DNA of 64,000 nt from Armatimonadota bacterium (GTDB lineage Bacteria; Armatimonadota; UBA5829; DSUL01): NCBI GenBank assembly GCA_039811685.1, contig JBDHZC010000003.1, forward strand, positions 32,001 through 96,000, given 5' to 3'. Of the stretch, positions 33,001 to 39,000 are shown piece after piece. The position numbers are program-made. Position 1 is the stretch's first letter; each line of letters starts with the position of its first letter.

Positions 33001-36000
33001 AATACTGTAGAGGAATACGTCGTAAACGTGGACACAACAGGCCGTCCAGTCGCTGACTACGGGTTCTTCGGTTTTCAGCGATGGGTGACGCCGCGCGGTA
33101 GCGGTTCGGGAGTTATCGTTCGCAAAGACGGGTTTATCGTTACCAACAACCACGTTGTGGACGACGCTCAGGACATTCAGGTGACCCTCTTCAGCGGCCG
33201 CAAGTTCTCCGGACGCCTGTGGGCGCGCGCGCCAGACTACGATCTCGCGCTGGTCAAGATCAATGCCAATGATCTGCCCTATGCGCGCTTCGCTGACTCA
33301 GAAAAGGACATCCGCGTAGGCGATCCTGTCATTGCTGTCGGAAATGCCCTCGGCTTGGGTACGACGGTCACTTCAGGCATTATCAGCGCTCTTCAGCGCC
33401 GGGTGCCATCCCAGAACGACAGCCGCAACGTCAGCCTTCAGAAGGCCATTCAAACAGACGCCGCTATCAACCCCGGGAACTCTGGCGGAGCGCTGGCTCT
33501 GCTGGACGGACGCCTGATTGGCATTAACACGGCCATTTACTCCACCAATCAGGGCGGCGGGAACATCGGTATAGGGTTTGCAATCCCCGCCAACACCGTT
33601 CACAAAGCCTTGGAAGCCCTTATCAGCAAGAAGACTTTTGAGTCTCCGGCTCCTGCGTTTATGGGTGTGGCGTATCAGCCGATGAGCCCAGATCTGGCCC
33701 AGTCACTCAATCAAAGGTTTGGGCTGAGTTATCCGACCACGGACACCGGTGTTGTTGTTCAAAATCTTGTACCCCAGGGGCCGGCGGAACTGGCTGGTGT
33801 CAAGTCCTATGACCAGATTCTTGAGGTGGACGGGAAGAAGCTCGACGCGGCGCAGAAGCTGGCGGAGATTATGCAGGCTCACAAACCCGGAGACGTTCTG
33901 AAGGTTGTCTTGTACCGGCCGGCGCTTTCAAAGAAGATGACGCTGAGCGTAAAGTTGTCGGCGGCTCCAAGAGATCTGGGGAATGGGCCCGATCAGTCGC
34001 AACCTCAGCCGCAGCCTCAACCTAGAATTCCGGGATGGCCATTTTAGTCTCCGCGGAGATGATAGTCCATCTCTGGACAGGGTAAATGAGCCAGCGCTTG
34101 CGCTCTTCTCGCTTGAGCCGCAAGGTGACCAGGCCCGCGTACTGGGCGGAGGCTCCACTGTTGGAGGTAATGCGTGCGTTTGCGTCAGTTGTCGCGACGG
34201 CGGAGTCCGCGTGCACTGATATCTGAGGCGGGTGCAAGGCGATCTGGATGCTGCTTGAGTCGCGAAATGTCTGAAGCAGAATCAGGCGCACCTGGTCGTA
34301 GCTGCCGCCAACTCCCTTGTAGTCCCTGGACACATGCGACAGCGTCCGCCAGATATCTCGCTTTTCGGCTGCTGCTGTCAGTCCTGTCAGAACATTCTGA
34401 ATCTGTTGCTGGTCTGTGCCTCGCGGGCGTGAGGCCAGCCATCCAGCGCCAAGCGCAACCGCAATGGCCAGAGCGGTCAGAAATGTCTTGTTCATAGTCT
34501 TAGCGCGCTCCTTTTGGAACTGGAACACGGCGCTTCGCGAAAAACACCATGTCCTTCCAACTGTCTGACGAGTGGAAAAGCTGTATGTTTCAGCTGCTCG
34601 AGTCTGGCGGCCGTGTTCTGGTCAGCGGGCCAACCGACAGCGGAAAGAGCACATTTTGTCTGGCGCTAGCTGATGCGTGCGCTGTTCGCGGTCATCTTTG
34701 CGCTGTGGTTGACGCCGACACCGGGCAGTCCGAGATTGGCCCTCCTGGAACTGTTGGGCTGGCCTGCCTCAACAAGACCACTGGCTCTTTCGCGGAGCTG
34801 GAACCTGACGCCATCTACTTTGTCGGAAGCACCTCCCCTCCCGGACATCTACTACCATTGGCGCTTGGCGTGGGAGTCCTCTGCCGCTTTGCCGGTGCGC
34901 GTCGGCCACACCTTACAATCGTTGACATGCCGGGATTTGTCAGCGGCCCTGGCGCCTCCACACTCGTAAGCAGTGTCATTTCAGAGTCTGCACCGGACAC
35001 TCTTGTCATTTTTCAGCGTGAGCGCAGTATGCGCGATATTCTGGCGGCGGTGCGTGGACTTCGCAAACCTGAGGTCTTGTTCCTGGAGCCGTCCGCGCAG
35101 GCACGGCAAAGAAGCGCGCACGAGCGCACAGCGCGTCGCAGATTGAAGTTTGCGGCTTACTTTGCGGATGCTGAGACTTTTGAGCTACAGGGTAGAAGTT
35201 GCGGGCTCCCTTATGGGGGGCCTTTCGCCGGCCGGGCACTCCCTATTGACGATTGTCTGGCGCTGGAGAGTGTGCTGGGAGTGGAAGTAGTGTACGCTGA
35301 GGAATCTGCCTTGCGAACACTGATTGTTACCCGGACCGAAGCTTCGCCCGCTGCTGTGGCCTCGGTGGCCAGGAGTATTCGGGGCCGCGCTTACACGTGC
35401 GTGACACAGGACTGGTTCAGGAATTCGCTGGTGGGGCTGGCGGATGACTCTGGGCGCCACCATGCTGTGGGAATACTGGAGGAAGTGGATTTTCGCAGTG
35501 AACAACTTCGCATCTGTTCACCTCTCAAGCGGCCGGGGATTGTGCGGCAGGTTCTGCTTGGAGCGCTTCGGCTGACGCGGGACGGACGTGAACTGGGCTA
35601 TATTGCTCCGGGCTCGCTTTACAGCCCGTCTGGCGCTGGCGTCAGGCGCCGGAGATAACAGGCGGCTATAGGATCTACCCTCGGAAAATACTATGCTTAA
35701 GAGCTTGACTTTCGTACGCCACGGTGAAAGTAAATGGAACGCGGGACGCAAGATTCAGGGGCATCTTGAATCCGAGTTGTCTTCTCTGGGGCGGGCGCAG
35801 GCGAGAGCGCTGAGAGGCTGTTTCTCTGGGGACTCCTTTGATGCCGTGTATTCCAGCGACCTGATCCGAGCTGCCGACACCGCACTGTTGGCGACCGGAC
35901 TAGGCCGCGAACAGCTGACTGTTACAGAGGCTTTGCGTGAGATATCCTTCGGAGACTGGGAGGGACTCAGTCCGGAACAGGTGCGCAGGCGGTGGCCAAG

Positions 36001-39000
36001 CGCCTGGGACGCGTTTCGCCAGGATCCCATCAACGCACGCCCTGCGACCGGGGAGAGCATAGCGCAACTCTCTGCGCGCGTAGGAGGTCTGATTGAACAC
36101 TGTCATTCTGTTCACGCAGGGCAAAGAGTGGTATTCTTTACACACGGTGGGCCAGTCCGAATCGCACTGATTGAAATACTCGGGCTTTCTCCGCGCCACT
36201 GGCGCACGCTGCGCATAGCAAACGCCAGTCTTACGCGTGTGGAATACATTGACGGAGAGGCGATTCTGACCTGTTTCAACCTTACAGGCCATCTGGCGGA
36301 TATTCACAAAGTGAAGGCAGCGGAGACACTGAAAGCGGATGAACAGTAAGTCGAGTCCGGTCGGCCTCGTACGCACGGTCTGGGGTCTGCGAAGGTCTAT
36401 GCGACTCTTCTGGCGTCTGTTCAACGATCCGCGCGTACCCGCTATCTTCAAAGCAGTCCCGCTGGCGGGATTTATCTACCTCATCAGCCCGCTGGATTTT
36501 GACTTCATCCCCGTGGTCGGCCAGATGGATGATGTGGCGGTACTCCTGTTGCTTGCGCGCTTCTTTGTCAAGCTGTGTCCTCAACAGCTAGTGCAGGAGC
36601 ACGAACAGGCTCTGGGGCGAACGGGACATTCCGCCCACTAGACAGCGTTTCTGAAATCCCACGCCCTCACAATCTCAGTCAAAAACTCCTGCACAGGCAG
36701 CTCAATCTCTTGAGCGCTCAGTTCCAGCCTTTGACCGATGCTCTCAGCCATACTCGCCAAGAGACGCTCGGAGACCTCCGGCTTCAACTCAGTGCTCCTC
36801 TGGATACAATGTCTGATTGCTTCCGCTTCCAGTGCGTTCAGACTTCCGGCTTTTTGTTGCACGTCCAGGCTGAGCGGGGATGAAAGCGGCTGCTCTGGTG
36901 GTAGCGCTGAAGGCGGCTGGACCGCAGGCGGACTCGCGCGCTGGAGTTTGACGACCACAGTTCCGGCGGCAATGTCGCCGATGCGTCTTCCGTCCCGGTT
37001 CAGGAACGCCACCACGATTCCAGGCCAGTACAGCCCCGGAAGCGAATCTGCGGCGCGAAGAAGGTTGCGAATGAGCGCTGCGCGAAAGCTGAGCGCGCGG
37101 CCATCCTCCATGATGACCCGGATGCTGACAAGTTTCTTACCCGGTGTCTGACCCTTCCATAGGCTCTCAAACAGCAGAAAGTAGCCATTGTAAACCACTT
37201 CAGCCAGCAGGATAGCCCCCGCAACCATCCATGAGCTTAGCGAGTTGCCCACTGCTGCAAGGCGTTGAATCCCTCCCAGGGCCGATGTGACAGCCAGAAA
37301 GAGGAGAATGATGCCGGCGAGCGCCGCCATCTGAAGCAGAGTGTCCAGGATAAGCGCCGCGCCGCGCGAGCCCAACCCGGCCACTTCGTAGGCGAGGCCA
37401 ATATTCTCCGGAGTTCTAATCTCGACTTTCTGTGGCATGACCTGTAGAATCTTTGTGACGATGGCTCAGATACGGCTGCATCCGCAGACCGCCAAGGCCG
37501 CCGCTCAGAGGAGTTGCACCCGATGGCTATCAAATCCTCCGCCACAAAGCACCTCGAGGAATTAGATCAGTTGACCTCTCAGGTAGAGTCGCACGGCTTG
37601 CGCTCTCTCAAAGGGGAACAGGTGCTGCGTCTCGGGCAGCTCTATCGTCAGGCGGTGAGTCTCCTTGCCCGTGCTCGTAGCCGAGGTGGCGACTCCCGGG
37701 AGCTGGAAGAGCTCAATGCGCTGGTTTCCCGCGCCTACCAGTACGTCTATGCGACTCCAGATCGCTCCGCACATGTCGCAGGACAGCTCTTCACCGCGGA
37801 GATTCCTCAGGCTGTTCGGCGAAATATCCGCGTCATCGCCCTCGCGCTCCTCGCTATGCTCCTCAGTTCGCTGGTTGCAGCAGTCAAAGTCCAGCAGGAC
37901 CCTGCGACCGCTGAGCGGCTGATGGGACGAAGCGCGCTGTCTTCTCTCGGGTTCCTCTCCCAGCGTCATCGGGACCGGCAGGAGATTATAGATCCGGACC
38001 AGCGCAGCCAAACAGGGTCTTTCATTCTGGTCAATAACGTCCGCGTGGCAACTCTGGCCTTCGCAATGGGCGCGTTGGCGGGCGTGGGCAGCCTGCTGGT
38101 GCTCATCTACAATGGCCTCATGCTGGGCGCATTTACTGCCGCAGTGGTGCAGTCAGGCGGAGGACTGGATTTTCTGGGATTTGTGGCGGCTCATGGGGTG
38201 CCTGAGTTGACAGCTATCGCTCTGGCGGGAGCCTCCGGAATTCGTCTGGGGTGGAGCCTGCTGGATCCGGGGGACTATGCGCGCGGCGAAGCGTTCCGGC
38301 AGGCGGCCTATGACGTCATCCGGATAATGATGGCTGTAGTGCTGATGCTGGTGTGGGCCGCCCTACTGGAAGCCTTCCTCTCTCCTAACCGCAGCCTTCC
38401 CTATTCTCTCAAATTTACAGTGGCGGGCGTGGAGTTGCTCGTGTTGGGGCTGTACTTCAGTCTTGCGGGTCGCGGATCAGCGCAGAAGACGCCACTTGAA
38501 GCGTGATTGCTCCGTCTCTCGGCGGACAGCACTGTTTTCAAGCTAGAATACCTGCCAAATGCTTCTCACACTCACTCACGAACTGATGCGCTTCTGCGAT
38601 CGTGCCCGCGACGCTGGCGTTGTCTATCTCGATACCGAATTTGTCAACGAAGAGAGCTATCTTCCCCGTCTGGAAGTCATCCAACTGGAGTCACGCGGAG
38701 ATATCGCGATTGTCGATTTTCAGGCTCTGAAAAACCCGGACCCGGTGATCACTCTGCTTTATGACAGCGAGCTACTGAAAGTCTTTCACGCGGGGCGTCA
38801 GGACCTGTCCATCCTGCATCAGATATCCGGTGAGGTAATGACCAATACGTTTGACACACAGATCGCTGCGGCTTTTGTCGGTTATGGTGAACAGATTTCT
38901 TACGGGGACCTGGTGCGCCAGATTTGCGGAGTCTCACTTTCAAAAAGCCACACTTACTCCTCCTGGGGCCGCCGGCCATTGACAAAAGAGCAGATCGAAT

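Follow-up and report, generated by a model that had tools for sequence, protein, structure and literature searches.

A Clp1-family kinase gene and a histidine phosphatase gene form a conserved pair in Armatimonadota that may serve nucleic-acid end repair

Introduction

Do a Clp1-family kinase and a histidine phosphatase that are encoded side by side in a bacterium work together, and if so, on what? The question is raised by a locus in a 64,000-nucleotide stretch of an Armatimonadota genome (hereafter the window, contig positions 32001-96000). We know of no histidine phosphatase acting on polynucleotide ends. In known end-healing enzymes, Runella HD-Pnk among them (available text of PMC6097658), the phosphoesterase joined to the 5' kinase comes from one of several unrelated families. 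Saito et al (2019) reported Clp1 in 0.9% of 1,543 complete bacterial genomes, and 'Armatimonad' is absent from their main text as available (PMC6777427), in agreement with the initial annotation of the locus. Our literature search, like the one before it, found no paper linking Clp1 with a histidine phosphatase.

Results

The initial annotation described a CLP1_P protein followed after 34 nt by a His_Phos_1 protein, and two plus-strand open reading frames bear this out (Table 1). Positions 34549 and 36349 are already window coordinates, to which 32000 is added for the contig position; the CLP1_P match of the profile search lies at contig 66627-67166. No terminator was detected between the kinase and phosphatase genes when 33900-37600 was scanned. 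The public gene call for the kinase (P0001, 357 aa) begins 12 codons downstream of the start used here, and the longer version retains a Trp conserved in relatives.

Table 1. Features of the locus in window coordinates (contig position = window position + 32000).
Feature	Position	Strand	Remarks
SnoaL_3-like gene	34022..34528	-	SnoaL_3 match; divergent from the kinase gene; hydrophobic N-terminus
Predicted Clp1-family polynucleotide 5'-hydroxyl kinase gene	34549..35658	+	ORF with ATG start, 369 aa
P-loop kinase domain of the kinase			residues ~20-206
Clp1-type C-terminal domain of the kinase			residues ~215-345
Intergenic spacer	35659..35692	+	34 nt; without terminator-like site
Histidine phosphatase gene (branch 1, PGAM-like)	35693..36349	+	ORF with ATG start, 218 aa; catalytic set complete

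The kinase matches CLP1_P at 1.2e-34 over residues 27-206, scoring 120.2 bits where the cut-off is 26.6. Compared with solved structures by sequence, it finds human Clp1 (8hmy_E, 1.1e-9) and C. elegans Clp1 (4ohv_A, 1.4e-7), and its Walker A and DxGQ segments are near-identical to those of human Clp1 in the alignment. The predicted model (pLDDT 88.3) matches C. elegans Clp1 4ohv in Foldseek (E 5.1e-18) and, over residues 1-343, human CLP1 8hmy_E 43-422 in VIA-align (Z 28.6, rmsd 2.7, 276 aligned); SRP GTPases, the next unrelated fold, score far below Clp1 (Z ~12.9). RecA concatemer entries among the structure matches cover the P-loop only. The kinases are basic (median pI 8.9). Invariant across 21 of them are G27, G32, K33, D55, D57, G59, Q60, G129, R193, R196 and R197, comprising Walker A (G27..G32-K33), the DxDxGQ motif (D55-x-D57-x-G59-Q60) and the lid arginines (R193, R196 and R197). 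Family membership, both structure matches and both motifs, all previously claimed, are thus confirmed, and judging by the model the kinase is a two-domain bacterial Clp1/Grc3-family protein. All Clp1-family enzymes that have been assayed act, to our knowledge, on polynucleotides. The present kinase would do the same, judging by its assayed homologues from Thermus scotoductus, archaea and eukaryotes; the bacterial Thermus enzyme phosphorylates ssRNA and dsRNA, and ssDNA with more enzyme (available text of PMC6777427).

The phosphatase matches His_Phos_1 at 3.8e-57 (193.5 bits, residues 5-197), and its predicted model reaches a pLDDT of 93.2. All of 19 adjacent phosphatases share R9, H10, G11, N16, R59, E83 and H151, so that the whole catalytic set is kept; with E at position 12 in the window's protein, the family assignment and RHGE motif given earlier hold. 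Equally borne out is that the nearest solved or curated relatives are small-molecule enzymes (phosphoserine phosphatase, PhoE, glucosyl-3-phosphoglycerate phosphatase and CobC), the best by sequence being phosphoserine phosphatase 4ij5 (2.8e-24) and PhoE 1h2e (4.8e-22). The protein stays under the equivalog cut-offs for CobC (138.9 vs 162.9), PspA (114.2 vs 350) and GpmB (90.6 vs 261). NCBIfam NF005567 matches it at 1.8e-34, over the model's phosphatase half. Adjacent phosphatases are acidic (median pI 6.0), not more basic than their paralogues, and some carry a conserved acidic C-terminal tail. In the tree they intermingle with paralogues from elsewhere in the genomes and do not form one separate clade. 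CobS was not found in this 97%-complete genome, which leaves the phosphatase without a role in cobalamin loop assembly and weakens a cobalamin reading.

Presence of the kinase in nearly all relatives, initially put at 38 of 40, extends to 57 of 61 genomes (own genome counted), and 99 of the 151 genomes of the phylum Armatimonadota have it. As to adjacency, the pattern described before stands and the figure does not: a recount finds the phosphatase immediately after the kinase, in the same orientation, in 27 of 30 loci instead of 28, the misses being L021 and L022, both with room for it downstream, and L030, with ~580 nt of room. Among the 57 kinase-bearing genomes, which are kin and not independent counts, the genes are adjacent and co-directional in 44 (a whole-genome count matched by hand), 3-4 kb apart with the phosphatase downstream in two and non-adjacent in 10, and one has no room. 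Within the same family or class the pair is adjacent in 40 of 50 kinase-bearing genomes by hand count, which bears out its conservation there as a two-gene unit. Under a longest-ORF rule, 14 of the relatives' 27 pair loci show a 4-nt overlap between the two reading frames, and genes farther out vary between loci. With four His_Phos_1 matches in the genome studied, there is only a remote chance that the two genes would be neighbours by accident in a single genome.

The pair had also been called a lineage-specific module. It is limited to Armatimonadota-type copies and, as stated before, only these carry the phosphatase among wider Clp1 homologues; it is, however, wider than the class, since 15 of 40 hand-picked genomes from the phylum's other families and classes have it, at kinase identities of ~30%. 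The sole pair-bearing locus labelled with another phylum (L045, Bacillota) has a kinase that nests among Armatimonadota kinases. In one genome (G039) the phosphatase is kept at the same site beside the SnoaL-like gene and the kinase is gone. Again no fused kinase-phosphatase protein was found among the homologues, a null result of little weight. The pairing is real, conserved and unpublished.

In some lineages without an adjacent histidine phosphatase, another phosphoesterase lies beside the kinase, which is a new observation. A YhaM-like OB-fold plus HD protein is encoded directly downstream in all three sampled loci of families f17 and f34, and in all three genomes of genus g11 a YfcE-family metallophosphodiesterase gene stands directly upstream (overlapping frames were read in two). 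A YfcE gene is already present 0.6-3 kb upstream of the kinase in seven other genomes, so a local deletion may account for the adjacency in g11, a genus whose kinases no longer have the DxGQ and lid residues.

Other genes near kinase relatives encode RmuC (directly upstream in L051, L052 and L055, one gene off in L044), PolX with a PHP domain (two genes upstream in L063; not found in the pair-bearing family f4, 0/28) and a macro domain (upstream in L089). The divergent gene of the window matches SnoaL_3 at 1.5e-4 (22.5 bits, cut-off 22). By tblastn, 29 loci carry a SnoaL-like relative on the upstream side of the kinase, several of these loci being the same genome counted twice, and such a gene also occurs in five of 40 other-family loci (L162, L163, L169, L173 and L181). 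An LmeA-like gene is near the kinase in all four f10 loci. These recurring SnoaL-like and LmeA-like neighbours are envelope-type proteins, and an end-healing model leaves both unexplained.

Discussion

The kinase and the histidine phosphatase may constitute an undescribed kind of nucleic-acid end-repair pair. That they form an operon cleaning up broken nucleic-acid ends is our tentative reading, to which we give slightly less than even weight. The Clp1-type kinase would move the gamma-phosphate of an NTP onto the 5'-hydroxyl end of RNA, or less well of DNA, relying on K33 of Walker A together with S34, on the D55-x-D57-x-G-Q60 segment and on R193, R196 and R197 of the lid. The phosphatase would clear a phosphomonoester from the 3' (or 2') terminus by way of a phospho-His10 intermediate, with R9, R59 and H151 holding the phosphate and E83 as acid/base. 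Together they would turn 5'-OH/3'-P ends, which metal-independent RNases, toxins or chemical breakage leave behind, into 5'-P/3'-OH ends. A polynucleotide end as the target of the phosphatase, the choice between RNA and DNA, physical contact of the proteins and the fate of the healed ends are parts of this scheme that we infer.

As in the initial annotation, a ligase partner is missing: none of the three families searched (RtcB, RNA_ligase and DNA_ligase_A_M) was found in this genome, which would leave a heal-and-seal RNA pathway without a sealing enzyme. Because RtcB, Rnl-type RNA ligase and ATP-dependent DNA ligase are lacking there, healed ends would most likely pass to enzymes of decay or trimming whose substrates must carry 5'-P and 3'-OH or, in DNA, to the ordinary nick ligase. 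Since 50 of 61 relatives have RtcB, the pair is no replacement for it.

A logic of 5' kinase plus 3'-end phosphoesterase is favoured because other phosphoesterases adjoin the kinase in some lineages that lack the histidine phosphatase beside it, and end healing gains circumstantial support from them. The Clp1 fold, the invariant catalytic residues of both proteins, their conserved adjacency, the basic kinases, the RmuC, PolX and macro domain genes near relatives and the weakened cobalamin reading also count for it. Against it count the small-molecule relatives of the phosphatase, the corrinoid adenosyltransferase gene of L045, the 10 of 57 relatives without an adjacent phosphatase, the lack of PolX in f4, the motif losses of the g11 kinases and the acidity of the phosphatases; a strict module reading is further countered by the unclean phosphatase clade, the kinase-less G039 and the lack of a fusion or ligase partner.

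Rather unlikely, yet to be taken seriously, is that only the kinase acts on polynucleotides and the phosphatase is a housekeeping small-molecule enzyme (PhoE, PspA or CobC-like), on the same transcript by inherited synteny and sharing no substrate with it. Its small-molecule relatives, its mixing with paralogues in the tree, its acidity and its persistence in G039 all fit this, as do the corrinoid adenosyltransferase gene next after the phosphatase in L045 and the mycobacterial RNase HI/acid-phosphatase fusion, whose domains show "functional disassociation" according to the title of PMC7466739. It is opposed by adjacency kept down to ~30% kinase identity across many families of the phylum while the outer flanks differ, by the 4-nt frame overlaps, by the other phosphoesterase families beside the kinase, by the lack of CobS in the genome and by scores under every curated equivalog cut-off.

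6-Phosphofructo-2-kinase/fructose-2,6-bisphosphatase is a P-loop kinase joined to a histidine phosphatase, and the solved relatives of the phosphatase include fructose-2,6-bisphosphatase domains (1k6m, 4.5e-5; 6iby, 2.0e-4), so such a fold pairing exists in nature. By analogy, the two enzymes might oppose each other on one phosphorylated small molecule or nucleotide, or act sequentially on mononucleotides (such as 3'-NMP to pNp and back), and in L053 the gene after the phosphatase encodes a PFK domain. We consider this improbable: the kinase fold is Clp1-type, with SRP-type GTPases next best, and not that of the PFK-2 kinase; assayed Clp1-family enzymes, as far as we know, all act on polynucleotides; and the YhaM-like OB-fold proteins beside the kinase point to polymers. 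The histidine phosphatase family includes SixA, PGAM5 and Sts-1, and a protein or phosphohistidine phosphatase regulating the kinase or a partner, as an acidic phosphatase with a sometimes conserved acidic tail beside a basic kinase might suggest, is very improbable given sequence relatives in the PhoE, PspA and CobC group rather than SixA and no conserved signalling genes nearby.

Among known systems, the Clp1/Grc3/Nol9 kinases (human CLP1, C. elegans Clp1, yeast Grc3 and Ts-Clp1) share CLP1_P, Walker A, DxDxGQ and lid arginines with the present kinase, whose kinase and C-terminal domains match solved Clp1 structures at Z 26-29. Unlike theirs, its gene shares an operon with that of a histidine phosphatase; the eukaryotic N-terminal domain is absent (the model begins at about human residue 43), and Phe stands in place of the clasp tryptophan (Leu or Met in relatives). 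Ts-Clp1 is said to have neither end domain (available text of PMC6777427), whereas the present kinase has the C-terminal one, and this kinase is not sporadic but near-universal in its class.

With branch-1 histidine phosphatases of the PhoE/PspA/CobC group, the phosphatase shares full-length His_Phos_1 and the catalytic Arg-His-Gly, Arg, Glu and His; it differs in falling under every curated equivalog cut-off and in adjoining a Clp1 kinase, its best solved match being the Hydrogenobacter enzyme 4ij5. Mycobacterial RnhC/Rv2228c, the case to which the NF005567 match relates, likewise ties a CobC-like histidine phosphatase, whose substrate is unsettled in the available literature, to a nucleic-acid enzyme, there by fusion with RNase HI and here by an operon with a kinase.

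The bifunctional end healers comprise T4 Pnkp and mammalian PNKP (kinase and HAD phosphatase), Clostridium thermocellum Pnkp (kinase, metallophosphoesterase and ligase), fungal Trl1 (kinase, 2H phosphodiesterase and ligase) and Runella HD-Pnk (HD and kinase). The present kinase is Clp1-type and not T4-Pnk-type; the phosphoesterase here is a PGAM-type histidine phosphatase, a family not known in end healing; two polypeptides replace one; and the neighbourhood is free of ligase genes, as is the genome for the three families searched. What they have in common is that a 5'-OH kinase is teamed with a phosphoesterase able in principle to clear the 3' end, here through an operon with overlapping frames in relatives, much as the ligase and HD-Pnk frames overlap in Runella (available text of PMC6097658 and PMC6777427).

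Conservation of the kinase–phosphatase pair

The pairing of the CLP1_P kinase gene with the His_Phos_1 histidine phosphatase gene downstream of it is real, and the two genes make up an operon conserved in the phylum Armatimonadota. Counting the window's own genome (3.42 Mb in 15 contigs, 97% complete), the kinase is present in 57 of the 61 relatives, in agreement with the initial annotation, which had placed it in nearly all relatives then counted (38 of 40). In 27 of the 30 loci returned, tblastn places the phosphatase immediately after the kinase in the same orientation, so that the adjacency claimed earlier stands for most loci while its count (28 of 30) comes out one lower. 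The exceptions are two loci with sufficient room (L021 and L022) and one with ~580 nt of room (L030). Under a longest-ORF rule, 14 of the 27 pair loci show a 4-nt overlap between the two frames.

Kinase and phosphatase positions were also paired by hand across the 57 kinase-bearing relatives. The genes are adjacent and co-directional in 44 of them, including one with only a 42-residue piece of the phosphatase (G003) and three with the kinase in pieces (G011, G041 and G050). The phosphatase lies 3–4 kb downstream in two genomes (G031 and G052) and is not adjacent in 10 (G007, G014, G020, G022, G023, G043, G046, G053, G057 and G060); one genome offers no room (G049). The kinase was not matched in four genomes. 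Two of these, G037 and G054, have no phosphatase match at 1e-10 either, and in G055 the phosphatase is located elsewhere. In the fourth, G039 (2.1 Mb, 97% complete), the phosphatase gene sits ~35 nt from a SnoaL-like gene (locus L134, G039:C40:1-3895) with no kinase between the two or elsewhere in the genome; here the kinase seems to have been cleanly deleted and the phosphatase to have survived.

As stated in the initial annotation, no fused form was found: a search for longer relatives of the kinase gave no protein, and the 10 longer phosphatase relatives (tandem His_Phos, IleRS and GNAT fusions) include none with CLP1_P, blanks that count as weak evidence. A complex prediction with both proteins entered as alignments scored 0.00 against a mark of 0.32, which speaks neither for nor against binding.

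Coordinates of the gene pair, its flanks and related arrangements (positions in the window or in the locus named)
Feature	Sequence	Position	Strand	Remarks
Clp1-family kinase gene	window	34549–35658	+	ORF, 369 aa; CLP1_P
Histidine phosphatase gene	window	35693–36349	+	ORF, 218 aa; His_Phos_1; 34 nt past the kinase gene
HtrA-like protease gene	window	32824–34047		flank of the pair
SnoaL_3-like gene	window	34022–34528	−	divergent from the kinase gene
DUF1232 gene	window	36339–36641	+	11-nt overlap with the end of the phosphatase gene
RDD-family gene	window			flank of the pair
SpoIIM-like gene	window			flank of the pair
RNA contig, run X16	window	34649–34946
RNA contig, run X17	window	36130–36321
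SnoaL-like gene	L134	312–755	−
Histidine phosphatase gene	L134	790–1446	+	no kinase at the site
YhaM-like OB-HD and short (~300 aa) kinase genes	L161	1183–2271
YhaM-like OB-HD and short (~300 aa) kinase genes	L175	1285–2415
YhaM-like OB-HD and short (~300 aa) kinase genes	L185	2472–3464
Upstream ORF	L185	357–1313		RecA/KaiC-type ATPase look, by eye
YfcE and Clp1-like genes	L146	1998–3583
YfcE and Clp1-like genes	L147	1980–3588
YfcE and Clp1-like genes	L148
PolX (pol beta thumb and PHP), DUF6657, Clp1-like kinase and DUF502 genes	L063	2619–6059		in this order
Macro-domain and Clp1-like kinase genes	L089	4312–6029		same strand

Gene layout and expression

A promoter and terminator scan gave no terminator-like site between the kinase and phosphatase genes and nothing else that bears on the operon. 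The phosphatase gene runs 11 nt into the DUF1232 gene, so a third gene may belong to the operon; among the other loci scanned, the genes downstream of the pair vary. The public call for the kinase (P0001, 357 aa) begins 12 codons past the ATG at 34549 (34549–34584), and the longer form that starts from this ATG retains a Trp conserved among relatives.

Short contigs identical to the locus, one or two per run, occur in four metatranscriptome runs; those of X16 and X17 come from the pair and those of X18 and X19 from the upstream gene. These contigs indicate presence in RNA libraries at most, since none bridges both genes and DNA carry-over is possible. Fifteen runs contain DNA near-identical to window positions 34300–36700, each with 50% or more of the words sampled; their labels read activated sludge, sludge, bioreactor or soil metagenome, or name no organism. 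Runs of every kind with such DNA number 20 and belong to 13 coded studies, and two of them may be the source of the window DNA.

On the other side of the kinase, ~20–55 nt from its start, the SnoaL_3-like gene encodes a product with a hydrophobic N-terminus (signal or anchor). SnoaL-like relatives precede the kinase in 29 loci, a number that counts some genomes twice, and occur in five loci of other families, three of them (L162, L163 and L169) without the phosphatase. That an exported NTF2-like protein is kept beside a cytoplasmic kinase is unexplained by polynucleotide end healing.

Reach across the phylum and beyond

CLP1_P was above the cut-off in 99 of 151 evenly sampled genomes of the phylum, about two thirds, and whole families are without it, among others f8 (0 of 14) and f13 (0 of 12). 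We picked by hand, and thus not at random, 40 CLP1_P-positive genomes from about 20 families outside the window's class. The phosphatase is downstream on the same strand in 15 of them (families f9, f11, f12, f15, f20, f26, f27, f37 and f40) and missing from this place in 25, one of which has only 244 nt of room. The pair had been described as a core gene pair of the class; it is indeed kept among the relatives, yet its reach exceeds the class.

A wider scan of 185,579 species genomes returned 70 loci. The phosphatase lies just downstream in 24 of these and at 3.4–4.2 kb in two more. The 24 are labelled Armatimonadota or carry no label, with the exception of L045, a locus labelled Bacillota whose kinase is nested with full support among Armatimonadota kinases. 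None of the other Bacillota, Actinomycetota, Chloroflexota, Planctomycetota, Ignavibacteriota, Nitrospirota, Thermodesulfobacteriota and archaeal loci of the 70 has the phosphatase. Given this restriction to Armatimonadota-type loci, the claim that only the Clp1 copies most like that of the window are accompanied by the phosphatase holds. A corrinoid adenosyltransferase gene adjoins the phosphatase gene in L045.

The kinase is a Clp1-family protein

The kinase matches Pfam CLP1_P over residues 27–206 at 1.2e-34 (120.2 bits against a cut-off of 26.6), and its sequence matches the solved structures of human Clp1 (1.1e-9) and C. elegans Clp1 (1.4e-7). Both the Walker A motif (GxxxxGK[ST]) and the Walker B/DxGQ motif are present, and the Walker A and DxGQ segments, aligned motif for motif, are near-identical to those of human Clp1. 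Invariant over the kinases of 21 relatives are G27, G32, K33, D55, D57, G59, Q60, G129, R193, R196 and R197, which include the Walker A and DxDxGQ residues. Domain, structure matches and motifs had all been reported in the initial annotation and are borne out.

An AlphaFold2 model built from an alignment of 21 relatives has a mean pLDDT of 88.3, and its top Foldseek matches are all Clp1, Grc3 or Nol9 (4ohv, E 5.1e-18). VIA-align superposed model residues 1–343 on human CLP1 (8hmy_E, 43–422) with Z 28.6 and rmsd 2.7 over 276 aligned residues, a span that takes in the kinase domain and the Clp1 C-terminal domain. Among unrelated folds the SRP GTPases came closest, with Z ~12.9 for the P-loop domain only. 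Judged by this model, the kinase is a true two-domain Clp1. Three arginines, R193, R196 and R197, are presumably the lid arginines, an assignment made by position in model helix 190–204. In eukaryotic Clp1, the Trp of the clasp motif serves in base stacking. By contrast, the window's kinase has Phe at this position, and its relatives have Leu, Met or Phe, whereas the clasp Gly (G129) is invariant; the motif name, TxGW, is that used in PMC6777427. Homology to the assayed Thermus scotoductus, archaeal and eukaryotic enzymes predicts 5′-OH polynucleotide kinase activity. Public names for such kinases are, as previously pointed out, 'Clp1/GlmU family protein' and 'polynucleotide 5′-hydroxyl-kinase GRC3/NOL9'. 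The kinase taken alone is an already annotated kind of Clp1-family protein, in which this lineage is unusually rich.

Identity and specificity of the phosphatase

The phosphatase matches Pfam His_Phos_1 at 3.8e-57 (193.5 bits). The RHG nucleophile motif, second Arg, Glu and second His of branch 1 are all in place, the catalytic set (R9, H10, G11, N16, R59, E83 and H151) is invariant among 19 adjacent copies, and the model has a mean pLDDT of 93.2, so that the earlier family assignment and RHG motif need no revision. Curated models gave scores below their cut-offs throughout: CobC TIGR03162 (138.9 against an equivalog cut-off of 162.9), PspA (114.2 against 350), GpmB (90.6 against 261) and the dPGM models (20–62 bits against 225–421). 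The protein is thus an intact branch-1 histidine phosphatase without an assigned specificity.

The main rival to a joint function with the kinase is a separate role of the phosphatase on small molecules. Its best solved relatives are small-molecule enzymes, a caveat that the initial annotation had rightly raised, and in a quick, unrooted tree the adjacent phosphatases are not set apart from their paralogues as one clade. Adjacent phosphatases are acidic and kinases basic, and the phosphatases show no notable difference in charge from the paralogues. The window's own genome has four His_Phos_1 matches, the nearest paralogue lying beside a phosphoketolase gene; the surroundings of the paralogues (phosphoketolase, Wzy_C/TPR, lipoate ligase and others) are uninformative. 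Set against the coupling of the genes and against the other phosphoesterases found by the kinase, we consider such an unrelated role less likely than end healing. Its cobalamin (CobC) version was dropped for the window's own genome, where the TIGR03162 score is below cut-off and, CobS having no match in this 97%-complete assembly, a cobalamin role is improbable.

Other genes beside the kinase

Two further phosphoesterase types adjoin the kinase. All three loci sampled from families f17 and f34 (L161, L175 and L185) have a shorter kinase that is directly followed by a protein combining an OB fold with an HD domain; this OB-HD protein matches the model of the 3′-5′ exoribonuclease YhaM at 1e-47 to 1e-52, below the model cut-off. 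The L185 kinase has 305 aa, with Walker A, DxDxGQ and lid motifs legible in translation. In genus g11 (G014, G020 and G046) the histidine phosphatase is elsewhere in the genome, and each of the three has a YfcE-family metallophosphodiesterase gene immediately before the kinase, with overlapping frames in both genomes that have listed ORFs. The g11 kinases are divergent in sequence and have lost the DxGQ and lid residues. As the same YfcE gene already lies 0.6–3 kb upstream of the kinase in seven other genomes (L040, L042, L050, L059, L072, L097 and L142), the g11 adjacency may stem from a deletion. A PIN-TRAM gene is next in L146.

Several further neighbours are connected with nucleic acids. 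An RmuC-family gene is directly upstream of the pair on the same strand in L051, L052 and L055 and one gene off in L044; the window's own genome gave no RmuC match. The gene order of L063, a Bacillota MAG, is suggestive of DNA repair as the setting of that lineage's kinase, and L090 and L091 have ORFs that match it in size and place, of which the domain scan covers L090's DUF6657 only. The macro-domain gene of L089 (Desulfarculaceae MAG) is immediately upstream of the kinase, and an uncharacterised nucleotidyltransferase gene overlaps the kinase end in L163. In five loci from Anaerolineales, Bathyarchaeia and Desulfurococcales (L064, L070, L076, L083 and L105), a gene of ~215 aa overlaps the start of a Clp1-like gene of 430–455 aa; the product of the smaller gene has weak, sub-threshold matches to DUF460 and in L070 also to a YqgF-like domain. 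The two may be a nuclease–kinase pair reminiscent of Las1–Grc3. UbiD-like and aconitase-X genes are next in the Desulfurococcales loci of this set.

Other neighbours do not fit end healing. An LmeA-like (phospholipid-binding) gene is upstream of the kinase in all four f10 loci (L153, L154, L179 and L187), overlapping it in three, and joins the SnoaL-like gene as a neighbour of envelope type; the same misfit applies to FtsW downstream of the kinase in L165 and to BioY and DUF1284 upstream in Ammonifex.

Discussion

In eukaryotes and archaea, tRNA splicing, mRNA 3′-end formation and rRNA processing depend centrally on Clp1 kinases; to our knowledge, bacterial Clp1 has no known role. Mycobacterial RnhC is reportedly a fusion of RNase HI with an acid phosphatase. 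According to the main text of Saito et al. 2019 (PMC6777427), Clp1-family genes occur in 144 bacterial species in UniProtKB and in 0.9% of 1,543 complete bacterial genomes, a rarity that contrasts with their frequency among the relatives and across the phylum reported here. The same text describes bacterial Clp1 as devoid of the archaeal C-terminal domain and shows that Thermus scotoductus Clp1 phosphorylates ssRNA, dsRNA and, with more enzyme, ssDNA. The initial annotation had remarked that this survey does not mention Armatimonadetes, and 'Armatimonad' is indeed missing from its main text, to which the bacterial supplement tables S2, S5 and S7 are external. The literature searched contained nothing that joins Armatimonadota with Clp1, or polynucleotide kinase with the phosphoglycerate mutase family and RNA repair. 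Nor did it contain a published link between Clp1 and a histidine phosphatase, as claimed before, and the coupling is undescribed within that literature; the survey by Burroughs and Aravind 2016, said to cover RNA repair systems, may mention Clp1-like kinases with phosphoesterase neighbours.

The coupling, together with the other phosphoesterases by the kinase, most probably represents a variant form of polynucleotide end healing, a tentative reading to which we assign slightly less than an even chance. The best fit would be a conversion of 5′-OH/3′-P ends into 5′-P/3′-OH ends, which would then pass to decay or trimming enzymes or to nick sealing in DNA. The wider proposal that Armatimonadota are the first bacterial phylum with a core Clp1-type 5′-kinase and an interchangeable 3′-end partner (a PGAM-type histidine phosphatase in most cases, replaced in certain lineages by a YhaM-like OB-HD enzyme or a YfcE-type phosphodiesterase) is possible but more doubtful.

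Ligases and polymerases narrow the role of the pair. RtcB is found in 50 of the 61 relatives, and PolX, which the window's own genome has, in 24 of the 61 and in none of the 28 of family f4; the pair therefore neither replaces RtcB nor needs PolX, and both proposals were rejected. With RtcB at hand in most of these genomes, 5′-OH/3′-P RNA fragments may be channelled by the pair into decay or trimming and not into re-ligation. A defence reading was dropped, PADLOC having given only a weak P-loop match (mad8, 3.9e-4).

If the phosphatase does clear 3′-phosphates on RNA or DNA, histidine phosphatases would be a further, undescribed family recruited to polynucleotide end healing, the substrate range of PGAM-type phosphatases would widen, and the compact kinase and phosphatase pair might serve as a reagent. 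Otherwise, the two genes would still clearly exemplify an operon that spans a phylum for reasons yet to be explained. A kinase tied to a phosphoesterase in most close relatives offers a direct handle on bacterial Clp1 function.

Among known systems, those that heal and seal have an associated ligase; sections of PMC6097658 describe the Runella HD-Pnk with an overlapping ligase gene. In contrast, no sealing ligase is among the genes flanking the pair, and the window's own genome gave no match to RtcB, RNA_ligase or DNA_ligase_A_M (NAD-dependent ligase being outside this search), in keeping with the initial annotation, which had found no RNA ligase partner. A classical heal-and-seal RNA route would thus be without its ligase here. 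In Pnkp-like end-healing systems a 5′ kinase is tied to a phosphoesterase, and in Armatimonadota a tie of this kind is made by gene coupling.
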